A stretch of DNA of 20,000 nt, taken from IMG/VR virus record IMGVR_UViG_3300038825_001395. One strand, given 5' to 3'. This DNA is from an uncultured virus (IMG/VR IMGVR_UViG_3300038825_001395). Lineage: Duplodnaviria; Heunggongvirae; Uroviricota; Caudoviricetes. Below the pieces are notes generated by a model, which was not told where the DNA came from, ran no database searches, and worked only from the letters and a program-made list of their open reading frames with translations. This document shows, piece by piece, positions 3,001 through 19,606 of the stretch; position 1 is the first letter of the stretch; every line of letters starts with the position of its first letter. The translations under genes and the position numbers were made by a program.

Positions 3001-6000
3001 TGGACTTGTTGTGCCTATGCCTAAATTATTAGCAATAAAGCCATGAGCAAACGAACCGGTTGAGGTTGATGAACCACTTACTTGTTGAATATTTTTTATA
3101 CTATTGACGGCATCAAAATCCATATCACCACCAATAATAACACCCCCACCAGAATCATTTTGTAGTCGTAAAGAACCAACACTTGTGTTAATACTATCTT
3201 GGTCAATAGTCATATAGTTAGAACTAAAACCGGATCTTTCTATTCTTATACCATCACCAGGACCACCAACACCACCAACTATATGAAGTGTTGTTGCTGG
3301 ATTTGTTGTTCTAATGCCTACTCTATCAGCAATATGAGCTTCAGCAAACGAACCGGTTGAGGATGCTGAACCACTTATTCGTGTTGTTGAAGCTCCAAAT
3401 TCTGCAGTATTACCGGTTAATGTAAAACCTGGTGCTGAACTAGCAGCAGCAGTGAATGCAAATCTGTTAAGAGCATGACTGTATTGTATCATCCCAATAT
3501 TGTTATCATCAGGATCACCAAAGAAAATACCACCTATTTTATTATTAGGTGTGAGTATTGAAATACCACCATCATTATCATTTTCAGCAACTATCTCATC
3601 TGCACTTGCATGAGCAACAACTGAACCAGCAGTTGCTGTATGGGAGTGAAGTGTTCCATCAGGAGTTGATGTGCCGATGCCTACTCTTCCTGTATTTCCT
3701 CTTATTACAAATTCTGTACCAGAAGCTATGTCAGCATTTCTTGATATAGAAAAGTTTTCAGCACTTGTTACTCCAGCATACCAATCTTCAGAAGCATTTT
3801 TAAAATGTACTGCTGCATTTGTTGTACCACTTCTTTCTATTCTAAAGTTATTTGCAGTTGATGATGAAAGATGTAATTGTACGGCAGGACTTGTTGTGCC
3901 GATGCCGACTTTTCCACCACTAGCAACTCTTAAAACTTCACCATCAATCTGATTTCCTAAAACAAAATGTTCTTCATTTACACTTCCACCAGCTATAAAT
4001 CCTAAGTAACCATCACCACCATTTTTTTCTAATCTAAAATGTATTAAATTATGTGGTTGAGTTGCACCAGTATTTGTATTTTCTAGTCTTAGCATAGCTT
4101 TACCATAAGCAGCAGTATCGTACTCATCAGATTCATTTTTAGCTATTGTTATTGGATAGTTAGTAGATGGAGTTGTCGTGCCGATGCCGACATTTCCCGA
4201 TGATAATACAGATATATTGGTAGTTGCTGCTTCAGCTGATGGACCAAAAGAGGATATACCCCCTTCAGCGACAACGTATGCCGAAGTATCATTATCCGCT
4301 ACCCGTAATTTTGCTCTGTTAGTTCTTGATTGTATCTTTAGTCCAACTTCACCACCACCCTCACTATTGAATATAGCAGTTTTAGTTAAACCAGATGTAG
4401 AAACACCTAATTGTAATCCAACTGTTGGATTTGTTGTGCCGATGCCTAAATTATCAGCAATATGAGCAGTACCGAACGAACCAGTTGATGTTGATGAACC
4501 ACTTATTGTATTTCCAAGAAACGTATGAGTATCGTCAGCACTATCTCCAAATATAGTTGAACCACTTAATGACTGATATTCTATAGAAGTGACTGATGAA
4601 GATACAATAAAGTTTTGAGCAGTTATGTTTCCTACTATATCTATGTTACCTGTTCCGGTAATATCATTACTATTAAGGTCTAAGTCACCGCCTAGTTGTG
4701 GTGTTGTATCTTCTACGACATTTGATATACCACTTCCACCACTTCCACCAGCAGCTAATGAGGCTGATGTAAAGTTTCCACCACCAACCATGAGATGACC
4801 GAATGAGCCGGTTGAGGTTGATGAGCCACTTACATTATTAAATGTTCCTAAAAAATTATGAATTACATCTGCGTCTTTTCCATATTTTATCTCTGTCCAA
4901 TAACTAGCTCCACCTAATAGTAAAGTAGTAGAGTTTGACGCTATAATATTAGAAGTTGCAGTTCCATCGTTTAATTGTGTAGTTCCTCCTAAAATAGTAA
5001 TACCATCAATTTCAAGATTACCTTGAACTTTATCAGCAACAACCAATGAACCAAACGAACCGGTTGATTGGGCTGAGCCACTTACCAATCCACCACTACT
5101 TCCAAGTAAAGTTAGTGTGTCTTGACGAACAGAAAGAGTATTATTACTACCAGTTCCAAAATGAATACCGGTAGCTTTTGTAGGATCATTTTCGTTATAA
5201 GGATTACCAGATGAACCTGAATTTATTAATATAGATACCCATTCGTAGATACCATCACCAATTCCATTTGGTCCAAAATCATTTCTTTTGTATAGTTGAT
5301 CAAAAAATCCATTGTAACCAGTAGTTAATTGTTTACCTACAAAGTGATTATTAGCAGTAGTAGGACCTATTGAATCAAAAAATGGATTAAAATTAGCATT
5401 TGAACCAGTTGTATATACATTTAAATGTTCATTTATTTTAGAACCAGCGGTTGTTAGACTATAGATAGTATTAGCACGAAAATCTGCTCGGTCATCTCTA
5501 GCATCTATTTCAAAACCAGCATTTTGACTTGAGTCTCCAGCAAACATTGAAGCAGTAGCAAATATATCAGTATTGACCACCCTTTCTGAAAATAAAGATG
5601 TTTGACCTATTTCATATCCACCGATAGTACCATCAGTAGCAGTTATTGAACCACTTAAAGTCATAGTGTTATTAGCAGGATCTAAATGAAAAAGAGAAGA
5701 ACTTATTTCTATGTTTCCACTACTAGCACTTATAAATTGACTTGTCTCACTTCCAATAAAAAATTTATTTGTTCGTATATCTAATTCACTTGGATTGGTT
5801 CTAAATCTAAAAAAACTTTCACTATTAGCAACCAATTCTAAACCAACTCCACCCAAAGAATAATCATCTGTTATATCATCTTTAACAGAACCGGAATACA
5901 TTAATATACCAGGACCCAATCCAAGAGAAGCACTTGTAAATCCTTTGTAATCTACGGTTGATAGTTCTGCTGATTTCTTACCCGAAAATGTAAATCCCTT

Positions 6001-6960
6001 TCCAACTTCTCTACCAACACTTAACGAACCGGTTAATAGGTTATCTGTTTTTTCTACAAAGAAAGGAGCAGAATCAAATGTTATAAATGATGATGTTACC
6101 TCAACTATCTCACCTTGTCTATCTTTATCTAGGTATTGTGCTAATTGTTTTGACGGACTTAAAAATCTTAATCTAAATTTTACAGGTGTGTTTCTTCTAA
6201 ATGTTTTTGGTGTCGGTATCTTTGTGGTATTTGTTATTGGGTTTAGACCAGAGGTAAGAGTTTGACTATCTGTTTCAAACGAACCACTTGTTAATGGATA
6301 TGATGTTATCACATCAAAATCATCTGTTTTAGATTTTTGTTCGTTGTATGCTAATTCTACAGATTCAATCTTTCCACCATTAGTTTCTAAATCAGAAAGA
6401 GTTACATTAATAAAACTTCTTTTATAAACTGTATCACTATCATCAAACTCAACCGTTTCACTTATACTTAAATTTGTTTGAATATCGGATGGCTTTGCTA
6501 ATACAAGTGGCGATGTATTTGGAAAATCTTTTCTTATATCATAGGTAAAAGAAGTTCTTACATTATATATTCCTTTCCAATCATTTGGTATTTCTTCACC
6601 ATCTAACTCACCCATTACATATAAGAAAGCAGGTCCGTCAGCAATCTCATCTGCTGTTCTTAATGGATCTTTCTTTATCCAAATAAATCCATTACCAGCG
6701 CCACTTAATTCTTCTATATCTATAAGGTTAGAAAATATTACAGTTCCACGAGAGTCAACAAACTCAAAAACAATATTGGATAAGTTTTTAAGAAGTGGTT
6801 CGTCTTCAGGATCATTAAAGGTTATAGAAAAAGGATGTTTTCCATAACTTAGGGTGCTGGGTAGACCAGTTATACTAAAGTATTTGGTATCGTTATCCTG
6901 TGTTTCAAGGAATACATCTTTCTTTTTGAGGTCTAGTACCTGACTAAATAGTTCTGCCAT
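31..6960 (-). CDS. Large tail fibre / receptor-binding virion structural protein (2309 aa), modular
   Basis: Gly/Ser/Thr-rich. Repeated (N/K/R)(V/L)GIGTTxP motifs and ten SGSxxSTGSF(G/A) motifs. TPQLGGDLDLN motif typical of marine phage virion proteins. C-terminal ..GDYIVTS..GHG..VIAQALE.. resembles tail-fibre/tailspike chaperone-like C-termini. Confidence 0.8.
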   Translation of the reverse strand: MAELFSQVLDLKKKDVFLETQDNDTKYFSITGLPSTLSYGKHPFSITFNDPEDEPLLKNLSNIVFEFVDSRGTVIFSNLIDIEELSGAGNGFIWIKKDPLRTADEIADGPAFLYVMGELDGEEIPNDWKGIYNVRTSFTYDIRKDFPNTSPLVLAKPSDIQTNLSISETVEFDDSDTVYKRSFINVTLSDLETNGGKIESVELAYNEQKSKTDDFDVITSYPLTSGSFETDSQTLTSGLNPITNTTKIPTPKTFRRNTPVKFRLRFLSPSKQLAQYLDKDRQGEIVEVTSSFITFDSAPFFVEKTDNLLTGSLSVGREVGKGFTFSGKKSAELSTVDYKGFTSASLGLGPGILMYSGSVKDDITDDYSLGGVGLELVANSESFFRFRTNPSELDIRTNKFFIGSETSQFISASSGNIEISSSLFHLDPANNTMTLSGSITATDGTIGGYEIGQTSLFSERVVNTDIFATASMFAGDSSQNAGFEIDARDDRADFRANTIYSLTTAGSKINEHLNVYTTGSNANFNPFFDSIGPTTANNHFVGKQLTTGYNGFFDQLYKRNDFGPNGIGDGIYEWVSILINSGSSGNPYNENDPTKATGIHFGTGSNNTLSVRQDTLTLLGSSGGLVSGSAQSTGSFGSLVVADKVQGNLEIDGITILGGTTQLNDGTATSNIIASNSTTLLLGGASYWTEIKYGKDADVIHNFLGTFNNVSGSSTSTGSFGHLMVGGGNFTSASLAAGGSGGSGISNVVEDTTPQLGGDLDLNSNDITGTGNIDIVGNITAQNFIVSSSVTSIEYQSLSGSTIFGDSADDTHTFLGNTISGSSTSTGSFGTAHIADNLGIGTTNPTVGLQLGVSTSGLTKTAIFNSEGGGEVGLKIQSRTNRAKLRVADNDTSAYVVAEGGISSFGPSAEAATTNISVLSSGNVGIGTTTPSTNYPITIAKNESDEYDTAAYGKAMLRLENTNTGATQPHNLIHFRLEKNGGDGYLGFIAGGSVNEEHFVLGNQIDGEVLRVASGGKVGIGTTSPAVQLHLSSSTANNFRIERSGTTNAAVHFKNASEDWYAGVTSAENFSISRNADIASGTEFVIRGNTGRVGIGTSTPDGTLHSHTATAGSVVAHASADEIVAENDNDGGISILTPNNKIGGIFFGDPDDNNIGMIQYSHALNRFAFTAAASSAPGFTLTGNTAEFGASTTRISGSASSTGSFAEAHIADRVGIRTTNPATTLHIVGGVGGPGDGIRIERSGFSSNYMTIDQDSINTSVGSLRLQNDSGGGVIIGGDMDFDAVNSIKNIQQVSGSSTSTGSFAHGFIANNLGIGTTSPVRMLDIVGAGAAIKVDSSDHAYIELDRGATGNLSQVKYLTAGSAKWYAGLTDSDVSGFDGTEFFIGEGSGGASDAHFVIDGSGNVTLGSGVALEFGDSNTKILGSSANNYLSFTPNGTELLRLVGTSISGSAVSTGSFGAGYIDNKLGVGTVNPKAPIHIFEDNYSTVMADPIADTRLFVSDIDGGSHIGIQSKNDNSGSIYFGHRTEIEAAKIVWDNSTDSMNFYSGSTKMFRYGLGDEIRFFKSLNSNSSIVTLGGIHVGGTSDPGNDNLTVDGIISGSIYDSINVEGTVSASGYGYFGGRVHLFGAISIGRQPGTDELTVGYDNSYNSIQYGKPAGTIHKFAGTIISGSSTSTGSFGSVRVREKYELAEHGDVFTIKDITNSRTLFSLTTGAVITLGNNYGANINLNTSAGVVIPNGTGLNVQSGNISGSAASTGSFGHGFIADKLGIGTTSPAYPLHITGADSAILLIGSTQGRVVLQDTGATSNSQAFDIVSVADKLNFRRLNDARSGVNATIMSFDGDKVGIGTTAPERKLHVVGNPILIDNNQHYEGKDSGGTKRRVIGLDSSNNINIGSGQSGGSINFIEGDATHMSIDASGNVEFLTASTISGSATSTGSFGELIIDSNGTFGGDIDLEGDIDVNGTTNLDNVDIDGTVQIDGNTTFGVSGTGVDVRFYGDTAGRYISWDQSADQLKFQDNTKLVFGTGLVTDADSDAQIYYDGSNLRLVNEGGVISLEDDVNVTGNVSGSATSTGSFGALRAGSGSLLELGDTTFAGYVGMKTGFMGSSDYMIISGISDGNTYISAKDTKSVEIRGGGNRDSNKIVVPDNTFIQLGGSSTTLIRPSVDNQATLGTAALRFSDVFAVQTTTGGVFETGLRTEKIGDNPTGTIVSWEEDGLVPCDKNEDELVMGVIKKGKDEPIVLGAEPVLVTGKVNVGDYIVTSDKIGHGKSVKRGYLLKKDLFGKVIAQALESCDGDSNLIKCMIRKM
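728..5083. repeat. Dispersed ~33-bp direct repeat, 10 copies (consensus ccaaacgaacc(g/a)gttgaggttg(c/a)tgaaccactt), encoding SGSxxSTGSF(G/A)
   Basis: Copies start at about 728, 1139, 1679, 1922, 2585, 3047, 3344, 4472, 4799 and 5051, all in frame within the tail fibre gene. Confidence 0.9.
1412..4446. repeat. Dispersed GTGCCGATGCC repeat (GGC-ATC-GGC-AC on the coding strand, G-I-G-T), 6 exact copies plus a 1-mismatch copy
   Basis: Exact copies at 1412, 1643, 3671, 3896, 4178 and 4436; variant at 3011. At about 1632-1710, 3000-3079, 3299-3376 and 4427-4504 this motif (or a degenerate copy) joins the 33-bp repeat to form ~80-bp similar blocks. Confidence 0.88.
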
Positions 6961-7030: not shown

Positions 7031-7195
7031 ATGAAGAAGAAATGTTCTTTTACAATAGATGACCAGCTTATAGAATGGTTTAAGTTATATGCTAAGGAAG
7101 AAAGCACTACTATGAGTGCTGTATTAAATCAATATATTCTTAGTTTAAAACGAGGAACATCTAAACCTAAAAATGTTCTTTATACTAACCGTTAG
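7031..7195 (+). CDS. Small ribbon-helix-helix (CopG/Arc-like) DNA-binding protein, 54 aa; not in the ORF track
   Basis: MKKKCSFTIDDQLIEWFKLYAKEESTTMSAVLNQYILSLKRGTSKPKNVLYTNR*. Beta-strand (KCSFTID), helix, T-M-S turn and second helix match the RHH pattern. GGAG SD 9 nt upstream. It fills the 6961-7191 gap, and its TAG overlaps the SbcCD stop. Confidence 0.8.
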   Translation: MKKKCSFTIDDQLIEWFKLYAKEESTTMSAVLNQYILSLKRGTSKPKNVLYTNR

Positions 7196-10100
7196 TTATA
7201 TATAACCTTAGAAAAACCTTTATCATCTACATTTACAGGTAGTAAATAATCCATAAAGTCTTTGATTGTATCTAAGTGAGATATGATAAAAACAGAATCA
7301 AATCTTGTTTTTAGATAATCAAAAGCACCTTTCATATTTGATAAGTTGTCCGTATCAAGTGTTCCAAATCCTTCATCTATAACAAGAAAGTTAGGACTTG
7401 GAAGATTAGATACATTAATCAAACCAACTCGGAGAGCAAGAGAAGAAACAAACTTTTCCATACCAGATGATAAACTTAACGGCCATTCTTGGTCATCATA
7501 CTTTATGTATAGGTTTATACTTTTATCTTCACTTGTTATACCTAACTGAAAACCAGCCATCATATGGTCTAATACTGTATTAACTTCATTTTCTATTATT
7601 GGAAGAGCATCATTTATAATAAGTTGTGGTATCCCATCACGATTAACTAACCTTAAATAAATCTCATAATCCGAAACCTTTTGTTCTGCCTTTACCAAGT
7701 CTTTGATTTCTTCTCCAAGATTTTTTTGATTTGTTTGTTCTATTAAGATACTAGATTCTGTTATAGCTAAGTCTTTTTTGTTTTCATCTAATATATCACT
7801 TGCTATTCTTACTTGAGTTTCTAACTTATTTATTTTTTGTGTTAAGTTATAATTGTGAGCAATAGCAACTTCATTATCTAAAAATATTGCTTGTTCTTCG
7901 GTAATCTTTTTTAAGGTTGATTGTGTTTGTTCTACTAAAAGTTCTAGTTCTTTTACTTTAGCATGAGTTTTATAAGCATCACCTTCAACTCTTTTTAAAT
8001 CCTCAACCATACCGTCATATTTTTGTTTTGTCTTTACTATTGTTTCATCTAGCACAATACTATTTTGTTGTTCTATTAACAATTGATAACTTATTGTGGC
8101 ATCACCTAAATCTTTTACTGCTGATTCTTTATCTTTGATTTGATGATCTCCATTTCTTAAACAATCTTCACAATCTTTGTTGTAATGATACTTATCAAGT
8201 TCTGTTATTTGTTTTTCTAATAAGTCAATAGCCATTTCAACTCTTTCTATTTCTTTTTCTATATCAGAAAGATTGGTTTTTTGTTTAAGATATTCTTCAT
8301 GTTTTTTGTTTAGGTCATCTTCATCATATACTTTTATCTGGTCAAATATTTGATTGTAGAGTGGTCTAAGATTTTCTCTATATTCATTTTCGGAAGCAAG
8401 AGTTGATTGTTGTTCTTCTAATTTAGTTGTAGTTTCTTCTATTAGTTTATCAAAATCCAATTCTTTTACATCACCGACATCTTTTAGTTTTGAGTTTAAT
8501 TCTACTATCTCTTCTTTAAACTCTTTAATATCAGTTTCTATAGGCTTTATCTTTTGTTCTAACTCATCTTTCTTTTCACCTAAATCAACTAAGGTTTGTT
8601 CTAACTTACCCATTTTTTGAAATACATTTTTATCTTTGATTCTTTTTAGATATCCTTTTTCATCAGATACATCTTCACGAGCAATATCATAAAGTTTATC
8701 AAAAAGGTCAATACCCATAAATTGAGATAAAATCTTTTTTCTTTCTGCTTGTTTTTTATCAACAAAGTTTTGTCCGTTGTTTTGTAGAGAAAGTGATGTA
8801 AGAATAAAGTCATCAAATGTCCCTAAGATACTTTTTATTTCTTCATTAGTTCCACTTCCATATTGTGAATTACTACGAGCAGCTCCACTAAGGTCAATCA
8901 TCTCATCATTTTCTATAACATAAAACTTAACAGATACAGGACATAGTTTTCTTACTTCGCCTGTTTTGCGACTTGTTCTAACTTTTAGTTTACCAGTTCG
9001 GTGAATAATATAATCAACACCATTTACCTCTAAGGATAGTTTTACCTCAAAGTTTTTTGACTTGTTGTTTAAGACTTCTATAGCTTTAAATGTTCTACTA
9101 CAAGTATCAAATATGGTATAAGCAATAGCATCTATTAAAGCTGACTTACCACTATGGTTTGGAGCAACAACACCAACTACACCATTTAGTTTAGTAAAAT
9201 CAACTTTGTTATTTTTACCATAACTAAACATATTATCAAACTCAATATACTTTAATTTCCAATCTACATTTTTTGGTAGTTCATTTTTCATACCAATAGA
9301 TGAGTTTGTAAATTCATTAATATCAAATAATCTTTGTATAGTTTTATCATCTATGGCTGGGTTTTCTAATCTAGCCATTTTATCTATCAAATTATTTTGA
9401 ACTTTTAAATCATGAATATCTTCTATTGATATTTTTGTATTAGAATTATTCATTATGTTTTCAATAGAATCTAATTTTTCAAATGATATAGATTTAAGTT
9501 CTGAATAAGTTTTTCTTAAATCCATTTCTATCAAACGGAGTTTTTCAGCTGATGTTCCTTTATGTTTTATTTTTAAGTTACCATATCTAGGAACAAAGTT
9601 CATCTTACTTTTTATTTCATCATCTTCTACACGGATTGTTTTAAATCCATAATCATTTTCTACTTGAACAAACTCGGACTTTCTTTTTTCTACATCCCAT
9701 AAAAGAAATCCGTGATCTGGTGCTTCAGCAAAGTTTTGTTGTATTAGTGAACCTGGATACGCAATAGTTTCATCATTATTTAAAAATTGTCTTTTGTGTA
9801 TATCACCTAATAAAACTAAATCATAACCATCAAAGTCAATAACATTTACATGTTCATCACTCATAACTAAACCGGTATCAACTTGAAAGTTTCCAACACC
9901 ACCATGATAAATAGCAATCTTATGGTCACCATCTATGTCTTTTGCTCTTGGTATATTTTTAGCATTTGGTTTTCCATCTTTTGTAATATCAAATACAGAT
10001 AGATGACCGAATTGACAACCACCCATTTCATATACACCTGTTTTTTTCCAAAAATGTATTCTTGGATTTATCTGTTTTACTAAATCAACAATTGGAGAAA

Positions 10101-10392
10101 GAACATCTTCTCTTGAAACATTATTTAAATTACAATCATGATTGCCTGGTACAACCAATAAGTCGGATATATCAGCAAGATTTAAAAAGAACTCTGCTAC
10201 TAATCTTGTTTCTTCAGGTGAGGTGTCTAATTTTCCATGAACAATATCACCACCTATGTATATTAAGTCTGGTTTTACTTCTTTTAACTTTACATATAAT
10301 CTATCAAACACATCTCTGTATTCTACAAACCTATGTAGTTTTCTAATGTGAATATCTGCTAAATGAGCAATCTTATTTATCTTCTTATCCAT
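7192..10392 (-). CDS. Fused SbcD/Mre11 nuclease - SbcC/Rad50 ATPase (T4 gp47-gp46-like recombination nuclease), ~1066 aa
   Basis: Metallophosphoesterase motifs ADIH, GGDIVH, GNHD, GDIH, YPGS. Walker A APNHSGKS, coiled coils with central CEDC zinc hook, signature LSSGME, Walker B LVIDEGFGTLD, H-loop ISH. Start moved to ATG 10392, which overlaps the primase stop (ATGGATAA). Confidence 0.92.
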   Translation of the reverse strand: MDKKINKIAHLADIHIRKLHRFVEYRDVFDRLYVKLKEVKPDLIYIGGDIVHGKLDTSPEETRLVAEFFLNLADISDLLVVPGNHDCNLNNVSREDVLSPIVDLVKQINPRIHFWKKTGVYEMGGCQFGHLSVFDITKDGKPNAKNIPRAKDIDGDHKIAIYHGGVGNFQVDTGLVMSDEHVNVIDFDGYDLVLLGDIHKRQFLNNDETIAYPGSLIQQNFAEAPDHGFLLWDVEKRKSEFVQVENDYGFKTIRVEDDEIKSKMNFVPRYGNLKIKHKGTSAEKLRLIEMDLRKTYSELKSISFEKLDSIENIMNNSNTKISIEDIHDLKVQNNLIDKMARLENPAIDDKTIQRLFDINEFTNSSIGMKNELPKNVDWKLKYIEFDNMFSYGKNNKVDFTKLNGVVGVVAPNHSGKSALIDAIAYTIFDTCSRTFKAIEVLNNKSKNFEVKLSLEVNGVDYIIHRTGKLKVRTSRKTGEVRKLCPVSVKFYVIENDEMIDLSGAARSNSQYGSGTNEEIKSILGTFDDFILTSLSLQNNGQNFVDKKQAERKKILSQFMGIDLFDKLYDIAREDVSDEKGYLKRIKDKNVFQKMGKLEQTLVDLGEKKDELEQKIKPIETDIKEFKEEIVELNSKLKDVGDVKELDFDKLIEETTTKLEEQQSTLASENEYRENLRPLYNQIFDQIKVYDEDDLNKKHEEYLKQKTNLSDIEKEIERVEMAIDLLEKQITELDKYHYNKDCEDCLRNGDHQIKDKESAVKDLGDATISYQLLIEQQNSIVLDETIVKTKQKYDGMVEDLKRVEGDAYKTHAKVKELELLVEQTQSTLKKITEEQAIFLDNEVAIAHNYNLTQKINKLETQVRIASDILDENKKDLAITESSILIEQTNQKNLGEEIKDLVKAEQKVSDYEIYLRLVNRDGIPQLIINDALPIIENEVNTVLDHMMAGFQLGITSEDKSINLYIKYDDQEWPLSLSSGMEKFVSSLALRVGLINVSNLPSPNFLVIDEGFGTLDTDNLSNMKGAFDYLKTRFDSVFIISHLDTIKDFMDYLLPVNVDDKGFSKVIYN

Positions 10393-11299
10393 ATAACTTT
10401 GCCTGTATTGAATCACTAAAACTAGCCGATTCAGTTGAGTTTATTAATGTTGTTATTTTTTCCCAACCCAAATCATTCGGGTCTTGGTCTTTCGGTAATT
10501 TTACTACTTTACTATCTATCCCAAAATCCTTAAAGAACTCTGACATAACATAAGCATCTTTCTTTGCATCATCATCAAGAGCAATATAAATTGTCTTAAC
10601 ATTTTTTTCAAAAATCTTTTGTAACAAACTTTTTGATGGTTTCTTACTTAACATCGGTATAGCGTTTGACCTAATAGACATAGCATCAAACACACCTTCA
10701 CACAATATAATTGGTTTTGACCAAGCAATATACCAATCAAATGGTATTACATCTCTTGATACATTTGGGTTTTTATACTTCATCTTTTCACCGACAAAAG
10801 AGCGACCAACAAAATAATTAAGTAATCCCATATGGTCATAACTTGGAATGATTATTCTGCCTTCATATAAACCTGAATCACAGAAACCTATTTTATATTT
10901 TTTTATATCCCAATCAGTAATACCTCTTTTATGTAAAAATGATTTTGCTTGATTACGGTAAATAGATTTACTAACTTTCCAAAGAGCTTGAAAATCTCTT
11001 GGTAAAGATACAATAACCTTTGATTCAGTTTCATCTTTTGATTTACTTGGAGTAAATACTAAATCTTTAAGCTCGGTAAAATACCTAGTGTCAGCATTTA
11101 CTTTTTTAAATAGTGAGTAAATAGAATGACCACCTTGATTACTAACCCAACAATGCCACTTCTGTGATTCTATGTTGACCTGTAACTTAGGCTTATAGTG
11201 ACTAACAAACGGAGAGTAAAACATATACTCATCTGCTTTGGTTAGGTTTTTACTTTTACTATTTAATGTTCTTTCTAATAGATAAACTAATTTATTCAT
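10385..11299 (-). CDS. DNA primase (DnaG-like, TOPRIM domain), ~304 aa
   Basis: FLHKRGI, GRIIIP, YFVGR, KYKNP, CEGVFDA, ALDDDA and DPND motifs. N-terminal zinc-binding-like region SPFVSH..WHCWVS. Start moved to ATG 11299, overlapping the upstream stop. Confidence 0.88.
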   Translation of the reverse strand: MNKLVYLLERTLNSKSKNLTKADEYMFYSPFVSHYKPKLQVNIESQKWHCWVSNQGGHSIYSLFKKVNADTRYFTELKDLVFTPSKSKDETESKVIVSLPRDFQALWKVSKSIYRNQAKSFLHKRGITDWDIKKYKIGFCDSGLYEGRIIIPSYDHMGLLNYFVGRSFVGEKMKYKNPNVSRDVIPFDWYIAWSKPIILCEGVFDAMSIRSNAIPMLSKKPSKSLLQKIFEKNVKTIYIALDDDAKKDAYVMSEFFKDFGIDSKVVKLPKDQDPNDLGWEKITTLINSTESASFSDSIQAKLYG

Positions 11300-12872: not shown

Positions 12873-13287
12873 CCTTTTCGCCAAAAGCTTTCTTACCCCA
12901 AATGTAAGAAATCTTATCATCCTTTATAGGACCACCTTTAGCCCAAGTATTACAAGAACGAGCAGAATGACATTTGAAATGATGCATCCAACAATATCCC
13001 AATACACCTGAGTCATCTGATACTTCACCTGGCATACACTCTAACATTCTCGGTGATATGTCAAATGCTGTACAATTACCACAAAGAGATGTTCTGGCTG
13101 CTTCTACGGATGTGTTCCACTTATCAGCAATCTTTTCCCAATAGTCACCAGGCTCATCAGGATTAAGAGGACCATACATATGATTTTTTACAGTTTCATC
13201 TCTGTTTCTTGTATTAAGCTCAACATCTTGAGTTGATGGTGGGCACTCTTTAAACTTTTGTTCTAATAGGTCTTGTAGTTTTATCAT
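12865..13287 (-). CDS. Cys/His-rich hypothetical phage protein (possible metal-binding), 140 aa
   Basis: CGNC..C..GYCWMHHFKCHSARSC pattern. MIKLQDLLE leader. ATGA overlap with the upstream stop. Confidence 0.7.
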   Translation of the reverse strand: MIKLQDLLEQKFKECPPSTQDVELNTRNRDETVKNHMYGPLNPDEPGDYWEKIADKWNTSVEAARTSLCGNCTAFDISPRMLECMPGEVSDDSGVLGYCWMHHFKCHSARSCNTWAKGGPIKDDKISYIWGKKAFGEKDD

Positions 13288-14030
13288 TTTATCCCCTTAA
13301 GAATAAGTTGTTTTTCTATCCACTTTTTACCTAGATAATTTTTAATTGGTTGTTTAATAAACTTATTAATACCCTTTTTCATTAACATATCAAATTTATC
13401 TTTTGCCTTTTTTTCATCCAATGTTTTAGAATTATCAACCATAAGAAAATTAGCATTTCCAAAAAGACCTTGAAATGATATTCTATTTTTTTGTACTTCA
13501 TTCCAAGATGTTTCTACTAATTCAGGATTAAGTTTTCTAGGTCTTTCCATGTTTCTTTGTTGAGCTACATCTAAATCTGTATGAACAAATACCATATAAC
13601 AATCATAACCTATTGCTTCTAACTCTCTTTTTTGTTCTAATATCTTTCCGTATTTATGACCGGTGCCATCTATGATTAATCCCAATCTACCATTCATATA
13701 CATTTTTTTTCTTTGAGCAGTTAGTTCTTTTGCTCTACCCCTCATCCCACTATAATCATCATAATCAGGATCAGTAAGTTGTCTGAATAGTTCTTCTGGC
13801 ATATCATCTAAGTCTAAACCAAAACCATATTTTTTTAACATTCTTTCTAATTCTTTATCTTGATTAACAAGTTTTAGTCCATAAGCAGATACATTAATTT
13901 TTTTTGGTATTCCAAATAACCCTTGAGCAACAAAAGATTTACCACTACCAGGTCCTCCAGCAAGAAATACTGCCTTGAGAATACCTTTGTCCATAACACC
14001 TTCTGTAAGTATATCCTTTAACTTTACCAT
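13284..14030 (-). CDS. P-loop kinase (AAA_33 / zeta-toxin / polynucleotide-kinase-like), ~248 aa
   Basis: KAVFLAGGPGSGKS Walker A, LIIDGTG Walker B-like, lid RNMERPR. MVKLKDILTE leader. Start moved to ATG 14030. Confidence 0.8.
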   Translation of the reverse strand: MVKLKDILTEGVMDKGILKAVFLAGGPGSGKSFVAQGLFGIPKKINVSAYGLKLVNQDKELERMLKKYGFGLDLDDMPEELFRQLTDPDYDDYSGMRGRAKELTAQRKKMYMNGRLGLIIDGTGHKYGKILEQKRELEAIGYDCYMVFVHTDLDVAQQRNMERPRKLNPELVETSWNEVQKNRISFQGLFGNANFLMVDNSKTLDEKKAKDKFDMLMKKGINKFIKQPIKNYLGKKWIEKQLILKGIK

Positions 14031-15289
14031 TTTTTGCAACTCCAATATCTAGCTTTATGTCTTGGTCCTGGAGTATCACAATTATGTCTTGCTCTAAAGT
14101 TTCTACGAGCATCAGGATTAGACTTACGGATTCTCATAGTTTTACCTTTAGCAGAACTACCACCGTGTCCAAAATTTACCTTGACAACATTACCTTTATC
14201 ATTTTTTACATATACTTTAAACTTCTTTACATCACCTTGCATTGGCTTACCAAGTTTTACTTTTCTACCTTGATATTCTGCCTCTACTAAACCTGTCATT
14301 GTGTATCCAAATGAACCATCTTCATTCCATATGTCATATGATTCTTTTTTTACACAATTAGGATACTTTTTACCAAACATAGTTTTCATACCCTTTTGTG
14401 TATATCCTTTCCAACAGGCTTCACATAAACATTGATTTTCATTTACACCTTCTTTTTTAGATTTATTACCCCAATTCTTAGCACCGACCTTACGGCACTT
14501 TACAAGAGCACCACTTGCGTAAGCTGATGGCCAGACATCATAACGGGCTTTTACCTTATGATAACAAGCATCTTTTTTTTCATATATCTCTTCTGTTTGT
14601 TTAGCACATTCATCATGTTGACATAGTTTCATTACATTCTCCTGCTTCTTTCGTCCAGCACAATGTGCTTTCTGACTAAACCCCTTTGGGTTATTACAAT
14701 CAATACTTTTTTTATATTTATCAGACCAACCTTCATTTCTTTGTTTGGTTTTTTTCTTCATCTTATTAATAAACTTTCTATACACAGCAGCCTGAGATGA
14801 CTTACCCATCTCTCTGGCTCTTTGTTCCATAGCAACAGCTGCCTGTATTTTATGGGCATGAGACTTACCACTACCTTTTATTTTAGATACTGACTTTTCA
14901 GCATCCTTAACAGTAGCAAACTTCAATCCCTTTATTGTACCTTTTGGATTTTCATCCGTATACAAATCTGAATGACTTGGTGAGTTTCTATGTTGACCTT
15001 TCTTACGAGGTTTTCTTGGAGCTTCACCCAAAAGAGAATATCCCAAGATAGCCATAGCTTTATCTCTTGGAGAATCCCCTCTAAATTTTTTAACTACTTT
15101 TTTGTAATTCTTCTTTATCATATCTGTAGCATCTTTAGTAGACCTTCCATATTGTGTGAGAATTTTATGTATTGTTTTTATTTCAGACTCACTTATCTTT
15201 CCAATCATACCTAATGGTCTAGGACCACATCTCTTTCTGTATTGTGCTACTGTCTCGGTATTACTTTTATGTCCACAAGGTAAAGACAT
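14024..15289 (-). CDS. Basic, Cys-containing modular hypothetical phage protein (421 aa)
   Basis: String of short modules recognisable from large/T4-like phage hypothetical proteins (HSDLYTDENPKG; KYKKSIDCNNPKGFSQKAHC; DACYHKVKARYDVWPSAYASGALVKCRK; ACWKGY..PNCVK; AEYQGRKVKL..VKVNFG..ARYWSC). TAATG coupling to the upstream gene. Confidence 0.75.
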   Translation of the reverse strand: MSLPCGHKSNTETVAQYRKRCGPRPLGMIGKISESEIKTIHKILTQYGRSTKDATDMIKKNYKKVVKKFRGDSPRDKAMAILGYSLLGEAPRKPRKKGQHRNSPSHSDLYTDENPKGTIKGLKFATVKDAEKSVSKIKGSGKSHAHKIQAAVAMEQRAREMGKSSQAAVYRKFINKMKKKTKQRNEGWSDKYKKSIDCNNPKGFSQKAHCAGRKKQENVMKLCQHDECAKQTEEIYEKKDACYHKVKARYDVWPSAYASGALVKCRKVGAKNWGNKSKKEGVNENQCLCEACWKGYTQKGMKTMFGKKYPNCVKKESYDIWNEDGSFGYTMTGLVEAEYQGRKVKLGKPMQGDVKKFKVYVKNDKGNVVKVNFGHGGSSAKGKTMRIRKSNPDARRNFRARHNCDTPGPRHKARYWSCKKW

Positions 15290-15636
15290 TACTTCTTTGG
15301 TTTGGTATTAACTCTTATTGGTTTCTTACCACCACCCTTTAAATCCGATGTTCCACCTCTACCAGCTTTATTTTGAGCTGCTCTTTTTCTACGAGTTGCT
15401 GATTGTTTTTGTTTTTTGGTCATACCAGCAGCTTTTGATTTAGGAACACATTTAGCATAGCCTCTTGTTTTACCACTAGTTCCACAAGGGGGATGTTTAC
15501 CGGATTTATCTTTCTTACCGATGTTAACCCATTTATCAGAAAACCATTTCTTTAGATTTTCATCTACAAGGTTTCCACAATGAATACAGGTATTTTCATC
15601 AAAAATACTTTCTACTATTTTTCTTAAATGTATCAT
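15289..15636 (-). CDS. Basic hypothetical phage protein (115 aa)
   Basis: MIHLRKIVE..E leader. LKKWFSDKWV..PCG..YAKCVPKSKA module of the same kind as in the adjacent gene. Confidence 0.72.
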   Translation of the reverse strand: MIHLRKIVESIFDENTCIHCGNLVDENLKKWFSDKWVNIGKKDKSGKHPPCGTSGKTRGYAKCVPKSKAAGMTKKQKQSATRRKRAAQNKAGRGGTSDLKGGGKKPIRVNTKPKK

Positions 15637-15651: not shown

Positions 15652-15681
15652 AATGTAAAAAAGAAAGGTTACTAATTAGTA

Positions 15682-16746
15682 TTATTTTAATATTGTTACT
15701 TTAGTTTTTTTGTAATTGGATACTAAAAAGTATATGCCACTTGGAACATCAGATGTATTCCAATTGTAATTTTTATTTATAATTTTTTCTTCAACTAACC
15801 TACCATTCATATCATAAATACCAATTAACCCATTAGCTATTATATTAACATTACTATTTGATGGATTAGGATAAGCAGATAATTTTGGTATTAATTTATT
15901 GAAAGTATTTTGGTCTAATACTGATTCTAAAAATGCTATAGCTTGTTGTTGATTACCACCAATCACTATCTGAACTAATCTTATTACATCAAGAATATTC
16001 ATCACACCATCGCCATTTACATTACCAGCTTCATATCCACATTGACTATCATTGTCTCCTAATATAATATCAACTAATATTAAAATGTCTGTTAAACTTA
16101 TAATTAAATCTCCATTTACATCTCCACCAGTCCATATTAAATTATTACAAGCATCACATACATCACCAATCTCATCACCATCCGTATCTACTTGATTTGG
16201 GTTATACCCATCAATACAATTATCATTATCATCAAATATACCATCGGCATCAGTATCTAAAACTAAATTTTCTATTCCTTCATTTATAGAATTTATTATC
16301 ATCGTTTGATTAAAACCGGATTCGGAAAGTAATACTTCACCATCACCACCTATGACAATATTATGCGGGATATAACCTGTTCCAAATAATCCATAGATAT
16401 TACTAACATCATCTAAGATAGGATATGTTAAACCAAAGGCTGTTCCCCATTCCTCACAACTATAAGGTTGATTCCATTCACTACCTATAGCAATCACCTC
16501 TAATACTGATTCATCATAATCTTGAAATATATCTTCTGTAAGTGGAGCCTCCACTTGACAACTTGGTCACCAACTGGTAAATAGATTTATCCAAACAACC
16601 TTATCCCTACCATCGGTATCATAATACCAAGTGCCTTCACCATTTTGACATATAGGAGCAGAGAAGTTATTTACATAATCTCCTACTTGATATGTTTGTC
16701 CTATTAATATTTGTAATGTAAATATCAGTAATATTATTTTATTCAT
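15682..16746 (-). CDS. Secreted redoxin (TlpA/AhpC-like) selenoprotein, 354 aa: signal peptide - UxxC thioredoxin-fold domain - TSP3 Ca-binding repeats - dockerin - T9SS-type C-terminal domain
   Basis: From ATG 16746 (overlapping the upstream stop) it reads MNKIILLIFTLQILIGQTYQVGDYVNNFSAPICQNGEGTWYYDTDGRDKVVWINLFTSW-TGA-PSCQVEAP.., in frame with the 290-aa ORF. TGA is codon 60 (16569-16567), at the first Cys position of WCxxC. Later motifs: YPIL..YIPHNIVIG (redoxin), DTDADG..DNC..NPNQVDTDGDEIGDVCD (TSP3), GDVNGD..TDILILV / GNVNGDGVMNILDVI (dockerin), YPNPSN..IYDMNGRLV..SGIYF..KVTILK (CTD). Confidence 0.88.
16537..16560 (-). promoter_or_regulatory. Putative bacterial SECIS hairpin
   Basis: mRNA reads UGA-CCAAGU-UGU-C-AAGUGGA-GGC-UCCACUU-ACA: a 7-bp perfect upper stem with a G-initiated loop 17 nt after the UGA, a bulged C and a 3-bp lower stem. 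Confidence 0.72.
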
Positions 16747-17134
16747 AAGCTCTCATTTTCTTTTTTATAACTAAAATGTAATTATCTATTACATCTGTAT
16801 TGACTTTATCCTTTTCCATCTTTTCTTTTTTAGCTACCAACTTACCATAAACTTTCTGTAAATCTAAAAGAGATAATGACCTCATAGATTTTCTGTAATA
16901 TAATTTATTGAGAGCTTCATCTTCAGCTTCTGCTCCACGAACTCCAGCAACTGTTGTTACTTTTTCTATCTCATAGTCTTTAATAGTAACTTCTTTAATT
17001 TCTTCCCACACGGTGTTTTCCCACATGGCATCTAAATCAAGTTCTTCTGTTGTGTCTTGACTAAAACTCAAGTTTAACAGGATACTCAGCCAAAATAAAG
17101 TTAAGACTATCGTAGGTATAATACCAAATCTCAT
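16739..17134 (-). CDS. Secreted hypothetical protein (131 aa) with TVAGVRGAEA motif
   Basis: Signal-peptide-like N-terminus ending LSFS|QD. AGGAGA SD upstream of the ATG. Overlaps the last pilin gene by 74 bp. Confidence 0.72.
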   Translation of the reverse strand: MRFGIIPTIVLTLFWLSILLNLSFSQDTTEELDLDAMWENTVWEEIKEVTIKDYEIEKVTTVAGVRGAEAEDEALNKLYYRKSMRSLSLLDLQKVYGKLVAKKEKMEKDKVNTDVIDNYILVIKKKMRAYE

Positions 17135-17480
17135 TATTCATTCTCCTATGATAAATTGCTGGATTACTTAAAATTGATGTTGAAAACTTCCATTCATTAT
17201 CAAATAGAGGAAGTCCTTCTGTAAGTGTTATATGATACCCACGAGTTCTTCCAACTAAAGTTAAGGGATTATATGGATATTTTTCAACTCCATTTACTTC
17301 TAATTCATACTCAGCGTATTCTTCTAAATCTTCCCAAAGTTTGTTAATAAACTTTTTTTCTAATTGTAGTAATTCAAGTTCTAATTTTTTTTGCATTTTA
17401 GGTAATTGAATTACAGAAAGTATTCCTATTATCACAATTACCATAACTAATTCAATCATAGTAAAGCCTTTAGAATACAT
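17061..17480 (-). CDS. Type IV pilin / pseudopilin (139 aa)
   Basis: Prepilin motif KG|FTMIELVMVIVIIGILSVIQLP (G-1, F+1, E+5, P+22). C-terminal half is paralogous to 17947..18387. Confidence 0.9.
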   Translation of the reverse strand: MYSKGFTMIELVMVIVIIGILSVIQLPKMQKKLELELLQLEKKFINKLWEDLEEYAEYELEVNGVEKYPYNPLTLVGRTRGYHITLTEGLPLFDNEWKFSTSILSNPAIYHRRMNNEIWYYTYDSLNFILAEYPVKLEF

Positions 17481-17926
17481 TAAATTTCTCCGATTACTTC
17501 TTCTTCATAAGATGGGCTATCCTCATCCTCATCAACTATAATTATCATCCGTGTTACAAATCCCGTTTCAGATGTGTCGGATTGAACATAATAATAAAAT
17601 GGATTGTTATTAGAATTCATCGGAAGATCACCACTAAACAAATCATTAACCATTCTACCATCTGATAAAACTTGAGCCTTAAACTCTAAATCCATTTGAT
17701 TGTTTTCTGGTTGTGGTGGAAAGTTAGGGTTTCCTATCATATGTCCTTCTTGCCAATACATCATAAATGTTGTTTTAACAATCTCCATATTTGTGATATT
17801 AGATTGTCTTTGTGTAGCAAGAACATTAGATTGGTAGGAGGGGATAGCGAATGACATCAATATCCCCACCAACGAAATAGAAACAACTAACTCTGCCAAT
17901 GTGAAACCATCATTGGAGTTTCTCAT
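17480..17926 (-). CDS. Type IV pilin / pseudopilin (148 aa)
   Basis: DG|FTLAELVVSISLVGILMSFAIPSY motif; AGGAG SD. Confidence 0.9.
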   Translation of the reverse strand: MRNSNDGFTLAELVVSISLVGILMSFAIPSYQSNVLATQRQSNITNMEIVKTTFMMYWQEGHMIGNPNFPPQPENNQMDLEFKAQVLSDGRMVNDLFSGDLPMNSNNNPFYYYVQSDTSETGFVTRMIIIVDEDEDSPSYEEEVIGEI

Positions 17927-17946
17927 TGGGTTCTCCTTTTTATTTA

Positions 17947-18387
17947 TTAAAGAGCTACCCTTTCACCGATTGAACCGATAGCAGCATTATCTCCATCTTG
18001 AACACCTTTATCATAGTCCCAAGCCCAACGAGTATTATCATTTCTCTGATGGGTAATCTGTAATGTTACTAAGTTATATGTCCATTCTCCATCTGTATCT
18101 GCATCATCTGTATCAGTAGCATCATATCCAGCAGGAGTTTCTTCTAATCCATCAAATGGATGATCTGGCCATACCTTACGACCTTCTGAAAATAGTTGTT
18201 CCATAGCATAGTTGGATAGTCCAGCTTGTATACTAGCGATTATAGCATCTTCAGCAGCTTCTTCAGCTTTTGTTACAGTTCCAAGATATCTTGGTACAGC
18301 AACTGCTGATAAAATACCTAAAATTATTGTTACCATTATTAGTTCAATTAATGTGAACCCTTTGTTGTCTTTTATTGTGTTAAACAT
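17947..18387 (-). CDS. Type IV pilin / pseudopilin (146 aa), MshA/PilA-like N-terminus
   Basis: KG|FTLIELIMVTIILGILSAVAVPRY motif; AAGGAG SD. Confidence 0.92.
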   Translation of the reverse strand: MFNTIKDNKGFTLIELIMVTIILGILSAVAVPRYLGTVTKAEEAAEDAIIASIQAGLSNYAMEQLFSEGRKVWPDHPFDGLEETPAGYDATDTDDADTDGEWTYNLVTLQITHQRNDNTRWAWDYDKGVQDGDNAAIGSIGERVAL

Positions 18388-18398
18388 TTCTGTTCTCC

Positions 18399-19034
18399 TT
18401 ACGGTTGTAGTTTCTTTTTAAAGTTAGCAGGTGATTCTAAATCAGCCACATAAAGTATTGGTGAATAAGAGGATTGTCCACTTCCACCACCAGCGATTAC
18501 TGTGTAAATATAGTGTCCATCCTGAAAAGGTGATTTAACAGCGTTTCCACCAAATTCATTTAGGAACTCTTCAGCTCCAACGGTTTCGCTGAAAGAACCA
18601 TCATCATCTGGATCTTCAGCAGTATTGACACTAGCACCCGTTGGCATTGGATTAGCAGGATTTTGTGTTCCAAATATAGAAGCCCATTTAGATGCTTCTG
18701 CACTTTCAAATGTTTGGAATACATTAAGTCCAGCTACCACAGAACTTTCATCTTGGTATCCACCACCATCAGGAACAGATTCATTGTATTTAACTTGACC
18801 TGGAAATCTTCCACGACCTTCACTAGTTACTTTTTCATTATAAAAGTTATTAGCAGATTTTACAATCTTATCAATATCAGCTAATGTCTTTTTTTCTTTA
18901 GCACCCTCTCCTACGCCAGAGAACTTAGGTGCAGCAGTAGTAGCGAGTGTCGCCATCATCGCTGTTGTTACAGCGAATTCAGCGAGTGACTGACCACTTC
19001 TACCTTTTAATTTTTTTCTTAGCTTTTGAAACAT
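18399..19034 (-). CDS. Pilin-like protein with atypical G|QSLAE cleavage motif (211 aa); candidate major pilin
   Basis: Basic leader MFQKLRKKLKGRSG|QSLAEFAVTTAMMATLATTAAPKF (E+5, P+22). AGGAGA SD at 19041-19046. First gene after the promoter region. Confidence 0.8.
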   Translation of the reverse strand: MFQKLRKKLKGRSGQSLAEFAVTTAMMATLATTAAPKFSGVGEGAKEKKTLADIDKIVKSANNFYNEKVTSEGRGRFPGQVKYNESVPDGGGYQDESSVVAGLNVFQTFESAEASKWASIFGTQNPANPMPTGASVNTAEDPDDDGSFSETVGAEEFLNEFGGNAVKSPFQDGHYIYTVIAGGGSGQSSYSPILYVADLESPANFKKKLQP

Positions 19035-19191: not shown

Positions 19192-19233
19192 AATGATACA
19201 ACTGTATTTATTTGTTACAAATTATGTATCATT
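19192..19233. repeat. Inverted repeat AATGATACA-N24-TGTATCATT enclosing TGT-N11-ACA and the near-palindrome ATTTGT-T-ACAAAT; candidate activator binding sites
   Basis: Arms at 19192-19200 and 19225-19233; TGT-N11-ACA at 19203-19219; palindrome at 19210-19222. Confidence 0.5.
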
Positions 19234-19606
19234 AAAATACATCTTCTGCTAATACATCATCTATAGCACTTTTTATTTCTTTATTACTGGCATCTATCTC
19301 ACCATCCATATCACCTTTCCAAGTTTCTTTCTTAGAACCATCATAGAAAAGAGCCATAGATGGAAAGTTTCTAAATCTAAGTTTCTTTATTACTTTTGGT
19401 GCTTCTTCACTTTTAACATAAAGTATTTTACAATCTTGATATCCCTTTACACCCTTTATAAGTGATTCATCAAAATCAGCGTCTTGCCATTCTGATGTAA
19501 ATATGGCTACGACTATACCACCATTAATTTTTTCTTTAAAGTTCTTATCATTTATTTGTCCGTATGACACAGACAAAAATAATAATAAAGTAAATATAAA
19601 TCTCAT
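19232..19606 (-). CDS. Secreted thioredoxin-fold protein lacking the CxxC motif (124 aa)
   Basis: Signal peptide ..VSYG|Q, then INDKNFKEKI..VVAIFTSEW(QDAD), cis-Pro loop RNFPSMALFYDG. AGGAG SD. Confidence 0.75.
   Translation of the reverse strand: MRFIFTLLLFLSVSYGQINDKNFKEKINGGIVVAIFTSEWQDADFDESLIKGVKGYQDCKILYVKSEEAPKVIKKLRFRNFPSMALFYDGSKKETWKGDMDGEIDASNKEIKSAIDDVLAEDVF

Follow-up and report, generated by a model that had tools for sequence, protein, structure and literature searches.

We analysed a 20,000-nt stretch of DNA (the window) from an uncultured tailed virus, IMG/VR record IMGVR_UViG_3300038825_001395 (Caudoviricetes), and focused on a minus-strand gene at 16746..15682 that probably encodes a selenoprotein, an exported redoxin with selenocysteine (Sec) in its active site. 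Standard gene calling (translation table 11) splits this gene into a 59-aa open reading frame (ORF) that ends in TGA (16567..16746) and a 290-aa ORF with a GTG start (15682..16554), both in the same minus-strand frame. A preliminary description of this DNA had noticed that the ORF track starts in mid-domain at 16554 and that the frame can be extended upstream by 64 codons, through a single TGA, to an ATG coupled to the previous stop. Read-through translation bears this out: the distance from ATG to GTG is 64 codons, the odd codon (U60) lies in the context F-T-S-W-U-P-S-C, homologues align over the full length of the gene, and the ATG overlaps the preceding stop in the letters ATGAATAA. Every element that the preliminary description listed is present in the sequence, and its interpretation of the gene as a phage-borne, Sec-recoded redox gene is supported; none of the refuting conditions that it named was borne out. 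The features are collected in Table 1.

Table 1. Features of the redoxin gene and its surroundings. A1, protein alignment of the redoxin family; A2, alignment of 51-nt sequences starting at the UGA; L178-L181, syntenic IMG/VR records.
Feature	Coordinates	Strand	Basis or remark
Complete gene, predicted selenoprotein	15682..16746	minus	354 codons plus TAA stop (15684-15682); one odd codon (U60) on read-through
ATG start	16744..16746	minus	Overlaps TAA stop (16741-16739) of upstream ORF 16739..17134
Predicted N-terminal signal peptide, about residues 1-17	16696..16746	minus	Hydropathy; hydrophobic helix 2-15 in model
UGA codon 60, predicted to be read as Sec	16567..16569	minus	First residue of UxxC motif W-U-P-S-C
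TGT codon, Cys63, predicted resolving partner in UxxC	16558..16560	minus	C63 nearly invariant in A1; T10 and G11 invariant in A2
Hairpin resembling a selenocysteine insertion sequence (SECIS)	16536..16561	minus	Invariant GGAGGCUCC core, covariation, frozen synonymous codons
ResA/TlpA/CcmG-like thioredoxin-fold domain, about residues 21-160	16267..16686	minus	Pfam, PDB and Foldseek matches
Thrombospondin type-3 (TSP3)-like Asp-rich Ca-binding repeats, residues 164-201	16144..16257	minus	phmmer match to thrombospondin-2, 8e-7
Dockerin-like EF-hand pair, residues 208-257	15976..16125	minus	Pfam Dockerin_1, 9.2e-5, 23.0 bits (cut-off 22.9)
Type IX secretion system (T9SS) C-terminal sorting domain (CTD), residues 292-350	15697..15873	minus	Por_Secre_tail PF18962, 1.1e-10
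Stretch skipped in a variant contig form	15683..16754		8 other letters instead; join 15682->16755
Upstream conserved phage module, outside the gene	16739..19034	minus	N_methyl motif matches; syntenic in L178-L181

The UGA codon is conserved and aligns with cysteine in distant homologues

The codon could be followed in DNA from 87 related loci (2 in IMG/VR records, 80 in metagenomes and 5 close ones in metagenome-assembled genomes, MAGs), which with the window make 88 sequences. Four loci begin downstream of the Sec column; across the sequences that cover it, the codon is TGA in 84/84. The loci are unselected for TGA, because the pattern of the motif scan accepted only W or C at this position and they were recovered through another motif. 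Sequences as distant as about 50% identity retain both halves of the gene in a single frame, and the 26 invariant columns of A1 lie on both sides of column 60. At the Sec column, distant homologues from Bacteroidota and other groups (L088-L162; 23-38% identity) have Cys, within WCxxC, in 75/75 cases. The preliminary description had placed the TGA at the first catalytic Cys of a thioredoxin-fold WCxxC and proposed looking for TGA or Cys there in homologues; the close ones carry the former and the distant ones the latter. By these alignments, Sec and Cys form a classical pair at this column, and the protein is conserved to the left and right of the UGA.

Dozens of assemblies made independently rule out an assembly error, which the preliminary description had allowed for, as does a 1,152-nt virome contig in run X1 that matches 15653-16804 without differences. 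All sampled words of the gene are present in fourteen DNA runs from at least six studies, and the exact sequence occurs in a run labelled viral metagenome.

Could the TGA be a genuine stop, and the locus a decaying gene or two separate small genes? Standard calling does yield the 59-aa and 290-aa ORFs, and about 50 database entries are of the 290-aa kind. Against this stand the conservation of both halves in frame and the lack of any other stop or frameshift in the 84 loci, the signs of decay that had been expected of close relatives if the gene were not read through. Furthermore, the split falls within one thioredoxin-fold domain, and the GTG 'start' at 16554 lies inside an arm of the hairpin described below. 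The comparative data already contradict this reading, and we consider it extremely improbable.

A second alternative is that the TGA is read as an ordinary amino acid without selenocysteine, as Trp or Gly through a recoded code or by near-cognate read-through. Stop-codon recoding occurs in some large phages, and 20 of the 22 aligned database relatives were called under code 4 (WWPSC). However, the 18 minus-strand genes of the window contain one in-frame TGA among 6,532 sense codons, compared with 61 TGG, and two neighbouring genes terminate in TGA with ATGA/GTGA overlaps onto the next start; reading through these two stops adds just 3 and 1 codons. Given this single in-frame TGA and the two coupled TGA-ended genes, TGA is an ordinary stop in the window genome and exceptional only at codon 60, which is not the pattern of an alternative code with TGA frequent as sense and unused as stop. 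The codon also coincides exactly with the column of the catalytic Cys, the hairpin downstream of it covaries and has frozen synonymous sites, and the cellular lineage that carries the family has full Sec machinery with a Sec-containing SelD. Together these observations make recoding without Sec very unlikely.

The protein search yielded 85 relatives (P0002-P0086), about fifty of which are 290-aa forms starting just past the TGA. The 22 aligned full-length or near-full-length forms comprise 20 with Trp at the Sec column (FTSWWPSC), one with Cys (P0006, SWCTSC) and one garbled. The sequence of P0009 is identical to the table-4 translation of L014, in whose DNA the column reads TGA, and Trp at this position is thus rejected as a code-4 gene-calling artefact, verified for P0009 against L014. 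P0006 is without the hairpin core, since it reads VAGP, not VEAP. Public collections thus store the family in two wrong forms, one N-truncated to 290 aa and one full-length with Trp at the Sec site; we ascribe the latter to gene callers switching to code 4 on short AT-rich contigs.

A covarying hairpin follows the UGA

The preliminary description reported a hairpin with a G-initiated loop 17 nt downstream of the TGA, and such a structure is present at 16561-16536. A lower stem of four pairs (16561-16558/16539-16536) carries an upper stem (16556-16550/16546-16540) closed by the loop GGC (16549-16547), the upper part reading AAGUGGA-GGC-UCCACUU at 16556-16540. The hairpin spans 5-31 nt past the UGA, with the first loop G 17 nt past it. 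In A2, which holds 67 distinct sequences, the core GGAGGCUCC is invariant with one exception, L087, whose UGAGGCUCA is itself a compensated pair.

Covariation of the stem, which had been proposed as a check, is evident. Over an 11-pair structure, 87.8% of the cells are paired, compared with 77.7% in shuffled alignments (0/500 reach the value). Covariation scores 0.350 in the alignment; shuffles give 0.170 (0/500), and sliding the partners by 1-3 columns gives no more than 0.087. At pair 17-27 the bases can pair in 67/67 sequences (CG 51, UA 11, AU 4, UG 1), pair 16-28 occurs as six pair types, and RNAalifold independently gives a six-pair upper stem. The synonymous sites are equally constrained: at the hairpin the Glu codon is GAG in 84/84 sequences, compared with 353/1217 (29%) elsewhere in the same genes, the Ala codon is GCT in 84/84 (elsewhere 367/967) and the Pro codon is CCG in 66/83 (elsewhere 80/960). 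Additionally, the residues flanking this E-A-P (V/T/Q/A/S before, L/Q/V/S/I after) vary in concert, with pairing kept. The gene therefore has the marks by which selenoprotein genes are recognized in sequence, namely an in-frame UGA with two-sided conservation, Cys homologues and a structure-conserved hairpin 3' of the UGA.

The product is predicted to be an exported oxidoreductase

The N-terminal extension had been said to add a signal peptide, and the N-terminus MNKIILLIFTLQILIGQTY is indeed hydrophobic (Kyte-Doolittle 11-residue means up to 2.9); a signal peptide is predicted from hydropathy and from a helix in the structural model. Homologues retain the hydrophobic N-terminus, followed by an invariant Q17 (A1). 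The next domain matches Pfam AhpC-TSA (1.2e-10, residues 21-138) and Redoxin (2e-6). In a PDB sequence search, the best match is ResA (4nmu, 4.3e-11), with U60 aligned on the first Cys of its WCKPC. An AlphaFold2 model built from A1 (mean predicted local distance difference test score, pLDDT, 76.6; predicted TM-score, pTM, 0.45) has residue 60 between a strand (50-57) and a helix (61-75), and the top Foldseek matches are ResA, DsbE and CcmG (TMt 0.74-0.82). The model, Foldseek and phmmer thus agree on a thioredoxin fold in which C(U)xxC lies at the N-terminal end of helix alpha-1.

Beyond the thioredoxin-fold domain, PF02412 is precomputed on homologues for the repeat region, and pLDDT is below 50 around residues 164-201. 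The dockerin-like region also matches the PDB 2y3n dockerin (0.004). The C-terminal region (289-352) is all-beta in the model; its Por_Secre_tail match reaches 42 bits against a cut-off of 27 and is joined by one to the CTD of PDB 8glj (0.0045), as expected of a type A CTD with a C-terminal Por_Secre_tail beta-sandwich. Based on the Pfam, PDB and Foldseek matches and the hydrophobic N-terminus, the product would be a TlpA/ResA-like oxidoreductase that is exported and combines a UxxC centre with Ca-binding repeats and a T9SS CTD. The mature protein is also strongly acidic, with no Lys in residues 50-256 and no Arg before R256 (window 15972-16599 corresponds to residues 50-258). Because the tryptic peptide with the active site would be 207 residues long, standard metaproteomics would miss the Sec site.

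The surrounding DNA belongs to a tailed phage

Several window proteins match PHROG families, including a primase (phrog_47, 7e-39), an SbcC protein (phrog_77, 8e-47), a RuvC-like resolvase and phrog_727 (3e-35). The SbcCD fusion protein of the window is closest to that of Microcystis phage Mel-JY01 (34% over 97%) and to those of uncultured huge phages of 484-735 kb, and ORF 14024-15289 matches 379 phage records, mostly cyanomyophages. The backbone gene order is common to four IMG/VR records of 54-73 kb at 44-89% amino-acid identity, and its collinear part comprises a 211-aa ORF, three prepilin-like ORFs, the RuvC-like gene, the primase, the SbcCD fusion and a giant ORF. CheckV places these syntenic records at 29-40% completeness, implying genomes near 180-200 kb. 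One of them, G008, has PHROG matches in 8 of 26 large ORFs (4 of its 30 large ORFs, already identified, were omitted from the search), and these include baseplate-wedge subunits, tail-fibre and virion-structural proteins, PhoH and a CobS-like ATPase.

The redoxin gene is inserted directly behind the conserved module 16739..19034, which consists of ORF 16739-17134, the prepilin-like ORFs 17061-17480, 17480-17926 and 17947-18387, and ORF 18399-19034. Two close relatives of the redoxin (L001 and L002) also lie on IMG/VR records; L001, in which the redoxin is 81% identical, has an SLT lysozyme, a denV-like glycosylase, a CobS-like gene and a 2OG-Fe(II) oxygenase. Among the other non-cellular loci, 11 of 39 ORFs have PHROG matches at or below 1e-8, and the neighbours encode PhoH, phrog_26846 (1e-161), a DNA ligase (phrog_114, 1e-77) and virion structural proteins. 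Backbone synteny, structural genes and best matches in phages thus all place the redoxin gene in a phage genome.

The gene varies in presence among related phages

The redoxin was not found in the five IMG/VR backbone relatives G007-G011. The syntenic relatives L178-L181 are without it, although the syntenic spot is present in L178 and L181; in L178, the homologue of ORF 16739-17134 is directly followed by the homologue of 13284-14045. Because the backbone relatives are without the redoxin, the gene is accessory cargo; it also has cellular homologues. Additionally, a contig form that skips the gene (Table 1) was seen in one contig each from X1 (DNA) and X15 (RNA library), with sides of 30-40 nt, which is weak to moderate evidence that 15683..16754 is a present/absent cassette. 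Contigs of the RNA libraries X15 and X16 match stretches of the gene at 90-99% similarity, one contig bridging the TGA site. When the protein was compared with 50,697 GenBank phage records by tblastn, one weak match (26%, 34% coverage) was returned, and no isolate phage there has the gene.

Cellular relatives point to Neomarinimicrobiota as the probable host lineage

A DUF6029 gene lies upstream of the redoxin in 20 of the 87 loci and is usually preceded by a gene for a Cys-type Redoxin or an Omp28-like protein. Among the loci linked to DUF6029 are MAG contigs (36 kb and 323 kb) that encode a GlnS-like tRNA synthetase and PrmA close by, and two of the five MAG loci are assigned to Candidatus Neomarinimicrobiota. 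The cellular copies, too, have TGA at the Sec codon. The cellular array, as seen in L048, L052, L055, L057, L058, L061, L062, L067, L071, L083, L085 and L086, consists of a Cys-type Redoxin (171 aa) or an Omp28-like protein, a DUF6029 protein of 650-667 aa and the Sec-redoxin, in this order. This arrangement suggests that Neomarinimicrobiota may have a redox module at the outer membrane.

A quick tree (82 rows, 143 columns, midpoint root) groups the cellular copies into two clades, of 14 and 7 rows, both nested among phage-like copies; the smaller contains six DUF6029-linked loci and one unclassified locus. The window belongs to another clade of 7 rows (SH-aLRT 98), sister to the 14-row cellular clade with a support of 89. 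This topology suggests more than one exchange of the redoxin between hosts and phages.

The preliminary description had proposed a search of candidate hosts and of the contig itself for the Sec genes. In the five MAGs that carry cellular copies, selA exceeds the cut-off in four, an adjacent selB in three (a selB fragment was also seen) and selD in two, and ARAGORN confirmed a tRNA-Sec (anticodon tca) in two. The phage fragments, 7-40% complete, yielded none of these genes. The selD genes of the MAGs (L163 in G004; L164 in G001) are selenoprotein genes themselves, each having an in-frame TGA within the motif GAGUACK and two short hairpins after it, and no obvious motif common to these hairpins and the redoxin SECIS was found. 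MAG G002 has three tRNA-Sec matches above the Rfam gathering score (contigs C188, C90 and C33), of which ARAGORN was run on L175; they could reflect multiple copies or contamination of the bin. Each of the five MAGs also has 56-77 matches to the T9SS CTD, and the GC contents of phage loci (32-37%) and MAG loci (31-36%) overlap.

These cellular relatives raise a third alternative, in which the DNA is cellular (a region of a Neomarinimicrobiota chromosome or another mobile element), was mis-sorted as viral and carries an ordinary bacterial selenoprotein gene. Such a view would fit the chromosomal context of the same family in MAGs, the T9SS CTD as a host-type export signal on the gene, the prepilin-like neighbours, the similar GC content (31-37% in both) and the fact that capsid and terminase genes were not seen in the fragments examined. 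It is difficult to reconcile with a backbone that is collinear with four IMG/VR records, one of them with baseplate-wedge, tail-fibre and virion-structural genes, or with best matches of the window proteins in phage genomes. Moreover, the cellular copies have a different and fixed neighbourhood (Redoxin/Omp28-DUF6029), and the exact sequence turns up in the viral metagenome run. We therefore regard a cellular origin of the window as unlikely, if less so than the two alternatives concerning the codon.

Discussion

We propose, with a probability of roughly 80%, that 16746..15682 is a selenoprotein gene and part of the accessory cargo of a large tailed marine phage, with the decoding, product, origin and role set out here. 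The phage would infect a Sec-competent host of the Fibrobacterota-Chlorobiota-Bacteroidota (FCB) group, most likely Neomarinimicrobiota (Marinimicrobia, SAR406). During translation, host SelB with Sec-tRNA(Sec) would bind the bacterial-type SECIS hairpin, and Sec would be inserted at UGA60. We take the Sec machinery to be the host's because the phage fragments at hand encode no tRNA-Sec; the hairpins of phage and cellular copies have the same core, which fits the use of the same SelB. The signal peptide would then direct export across the inner membrane, and the CTD would deliver the protein to the host cell surface. There, the product may act as a highly nucleophilic thiol/selenol-disulfide oxidoreductase, with Sec60 as the nucleophile and Cys63 as its partner. 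If Sec insertion fails, a 59-aa fragment would result, and for this reason redoxin output should depend on selenium and on the host machinery; we infer that expression of the redoxin is selenium-dependent. The gene was most likely acquired from hosts with the Redoxin/Omp28-DUF6029-Sec-redoxin operon, and it is probably expressed during infection, when its product would maintain the redox state of the cell surface or change it.

Several observations weigh against this proposal. The role in infection is a conjecture: our best guess is the upkeep of the surface or periplasmic redox state, and the alteration of surface receptors is an alternative. The RNA-library contigs over the gene are variants at about 90-95% and are no proof that it is transcribed. 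The quick tree does not establish the direction or number of transfers. No sel genes and no tRNA genes of any kind, tRNA-Sec included, were found on the phage fragments, which at 7-40% completeness give no evidence of absence, and neither a capsid nor a terminase gene turned up on those examined; a Pfam Gp23 search matched nowhere, controls included, and is uninformative on the capsid. Regarding the hairpin, the minimum free energy z-score of a 76-nt stretch is 0.16, which is not significant, so that its support comes from sequence comparison and not from folding energy. The hairpin also encodes the conserved E-A-P, and part of its invariance is therefore at the protein level; the argument accordingly rests on synonymous sites and covariation.

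The redoxin resembles ResA, CcmG and TlpA, which are its best sequence and fold matches, in having the WCxxC position at the N-terminus of helix 1, in its predicted export, and in the Glu after the motif and the Pro loop (here E66, nearly invariant in at least 90% of rows, and the invariant P127; A1). Unlike them, it has Sec in place of the nucleophilic Cys and a T9SS CTD instead of a membrane anchor, and its gene has no link to cytochrome c maturation genes. The pneumococcal proteins Etrx1 and Etrx2, which are among the fold matches (TMt 0.75-0.78), are likewise TlpA-like thioredoxin folds at the cell surface, but they are cellular Cys enzymes and lipoproteins. Etrx1 and Etrx2 feed MsrAB. The hairpin is comparable with the SECIS of Escherichia coli fdhF in its position in the coding sequence directly 3' of the UGA, its G-containing apical loop and its fixed distance. 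The bacterial consensus features are reportedly those of the bSECIS description by Zhang and Gladyshev. In contrast to the fdhF element, the redoxin hairpin has the core GGAGGCUCC and a loop that can be taken as GGC (3 nt) or AGGCU (5 nt), and its binding by SelB is a prediction.

The enzyme itself is of a known kind. Marine Prx-like and Trx-like UxxC selenoproteins were catalogued from Global Ocean Sampling (GOS) data, where the families 'Prx-like 1' (pfam00578, UxxC) and 'Prx-like 3' (pfam08534, UxxC) are described and Prx-like selenoproteins fused to extra domains are noted, according to the available parts of that paper (PMC2398784). They also appear in the accessible text of a 2026 review of the prokaryotic selenoproteome, in which the words phage, virus and viral do not occur (PMC13188914). 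When compared with them by published description and not by sequence, the redoxin shares with these GOS and Sargasso Sea proteins (Prx-like and thiol-disulfide-isomerase-like; PF00578, PF08534, cd02966) the thioredoxin fold, the UxxC motif, the occurrence in marine metagenomes and the Cys homologues; it differs in that the present copy lies in a phage genome and is fused to TSP3- and dockerin-like repeats and a T9SS domain. Since the family is a known kind of marine selenoprotein (Prx-like/TlpA-like UxxC), the novelty lies in carriage by a phage and not in the enzyme.

Among viruses, the glutathione peroxidases (GPx) of poxviruses (molluscum contagiosum and fowlpox) are the only selenoproteins named in the available sections of a 2021 review of recoding, which place the SECIS of the fowlpox GPx within the coding region (PMC8310308). 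The redoxin gene is similar to these in being virus-borne and, probably, host-derived and dependent on host Sec decoding. The poxvirus enzymes, however, belong to eukaryotic viruses with SECIS/SBP2 decoding, whereas the redoxin is a TlpA-like protein of a bacteriophage with a bacterial SelB-type hairpin. A 2023 study predicted tRNA-Sec genes in huge phages from wastewater, with no selenoprotein gene named in the portion of the paper available (PMC10747093). That finding suggests a link between phages and Sec decoding from the other side: in the redoxin phage, the selenoprotein gene was identified and tRNA-Sec was not found on the fragments. In a 2021 survey of trace elements in the sea, families beyond ribonucleotide reductase II, plastocyanin and Cu-Zn superoxide dismutase contained no or very few viral sequences, as far as its available text goes (PMC9402790). 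We found no description of a phage-encoded selenoprotein in the literature covered, subscription-only papers being outside its scope, and the present gene appears, from its sequence, to be the first bacteriophage gene clearly recognizable as one for a selenoprotein.

Because Sec decoding needs a dedicated factor, a tRNA and an mRNA signal, a selenoprotein gene in a phage would work only in Sec-competent hosts. The gene offers a sequence-based link between phages and the uncultured SAR406 lineage, and the phage and host copies form a natural pair for comparing the specificity of SelB for its SECIS. The recurrence of the same TGA and hairpin in dozens of phage-like contigs would extend the biology of auxiliary genes to recoded genes. 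The family also exposes a systematic annotation error, being stored as 290-aa truncations or code-4 'WWPSC' proteins. More tentatively, and with somewhat more doubt than confidence on our part, the data could reflect a guild of marine myovirus-like phages of ~190 kb that infect uncultured Neomarinimicrobiota and carry Sec surface redoxins, the gene having passed between hosts and phages on more than one occasion. In such a guild, the SECIS would match the host copy (identical GGAGGCUCC core), and output would be gated by the host through SelB, tRNA-Sec and selenium supply. If this were true, the redoxin would count as the first selenoprotein of a bacteriophage and would at the same time serve as an inbuilt indicator of host range, tying viral infection to the marine selenium cycle.

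Other features of the window

The prepilin-like ORFs, which carry an N-terminal methylation motif, are flanked by the 211-aa ORF and by a 131-aa ORF with a hydrophobic N-terminus, and this cluster is kept in synteny in the four IMG/VR relatives. The small protein encoded at 19232-19606 (minus) looks secreted and is conserved in L003 and L180; its match to thioredoxin is weak (E 7.9e-4, below the Pfam cut-off), and it has no CxxC. On the other side of the redoxin gene, ORFs 14024-15289 and 15289-15636 (minus) are made up of short modules (phrog_727, phrog_23735, DUF5872) with 63-79% identity to hypothetical proteins of many cyanomyophages and pelagiphages; these modules are absent from L178-L181. 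The SbcCD fusion at 7192-10416 (minus) is a 1,074-aa chain that joins an Mre11/SbcD-type phosphoesterase to a Rad50/SbcC-type ATPase. The giant ORF at 31-6960 (minus) encodes 2,309 aa without a Pfam or PHROG match. Only about its first 460 residues can be aligned with the relatives in the syntenic IMG/VR records (44-74% identity), and it may be a variable virion or fibre protein.

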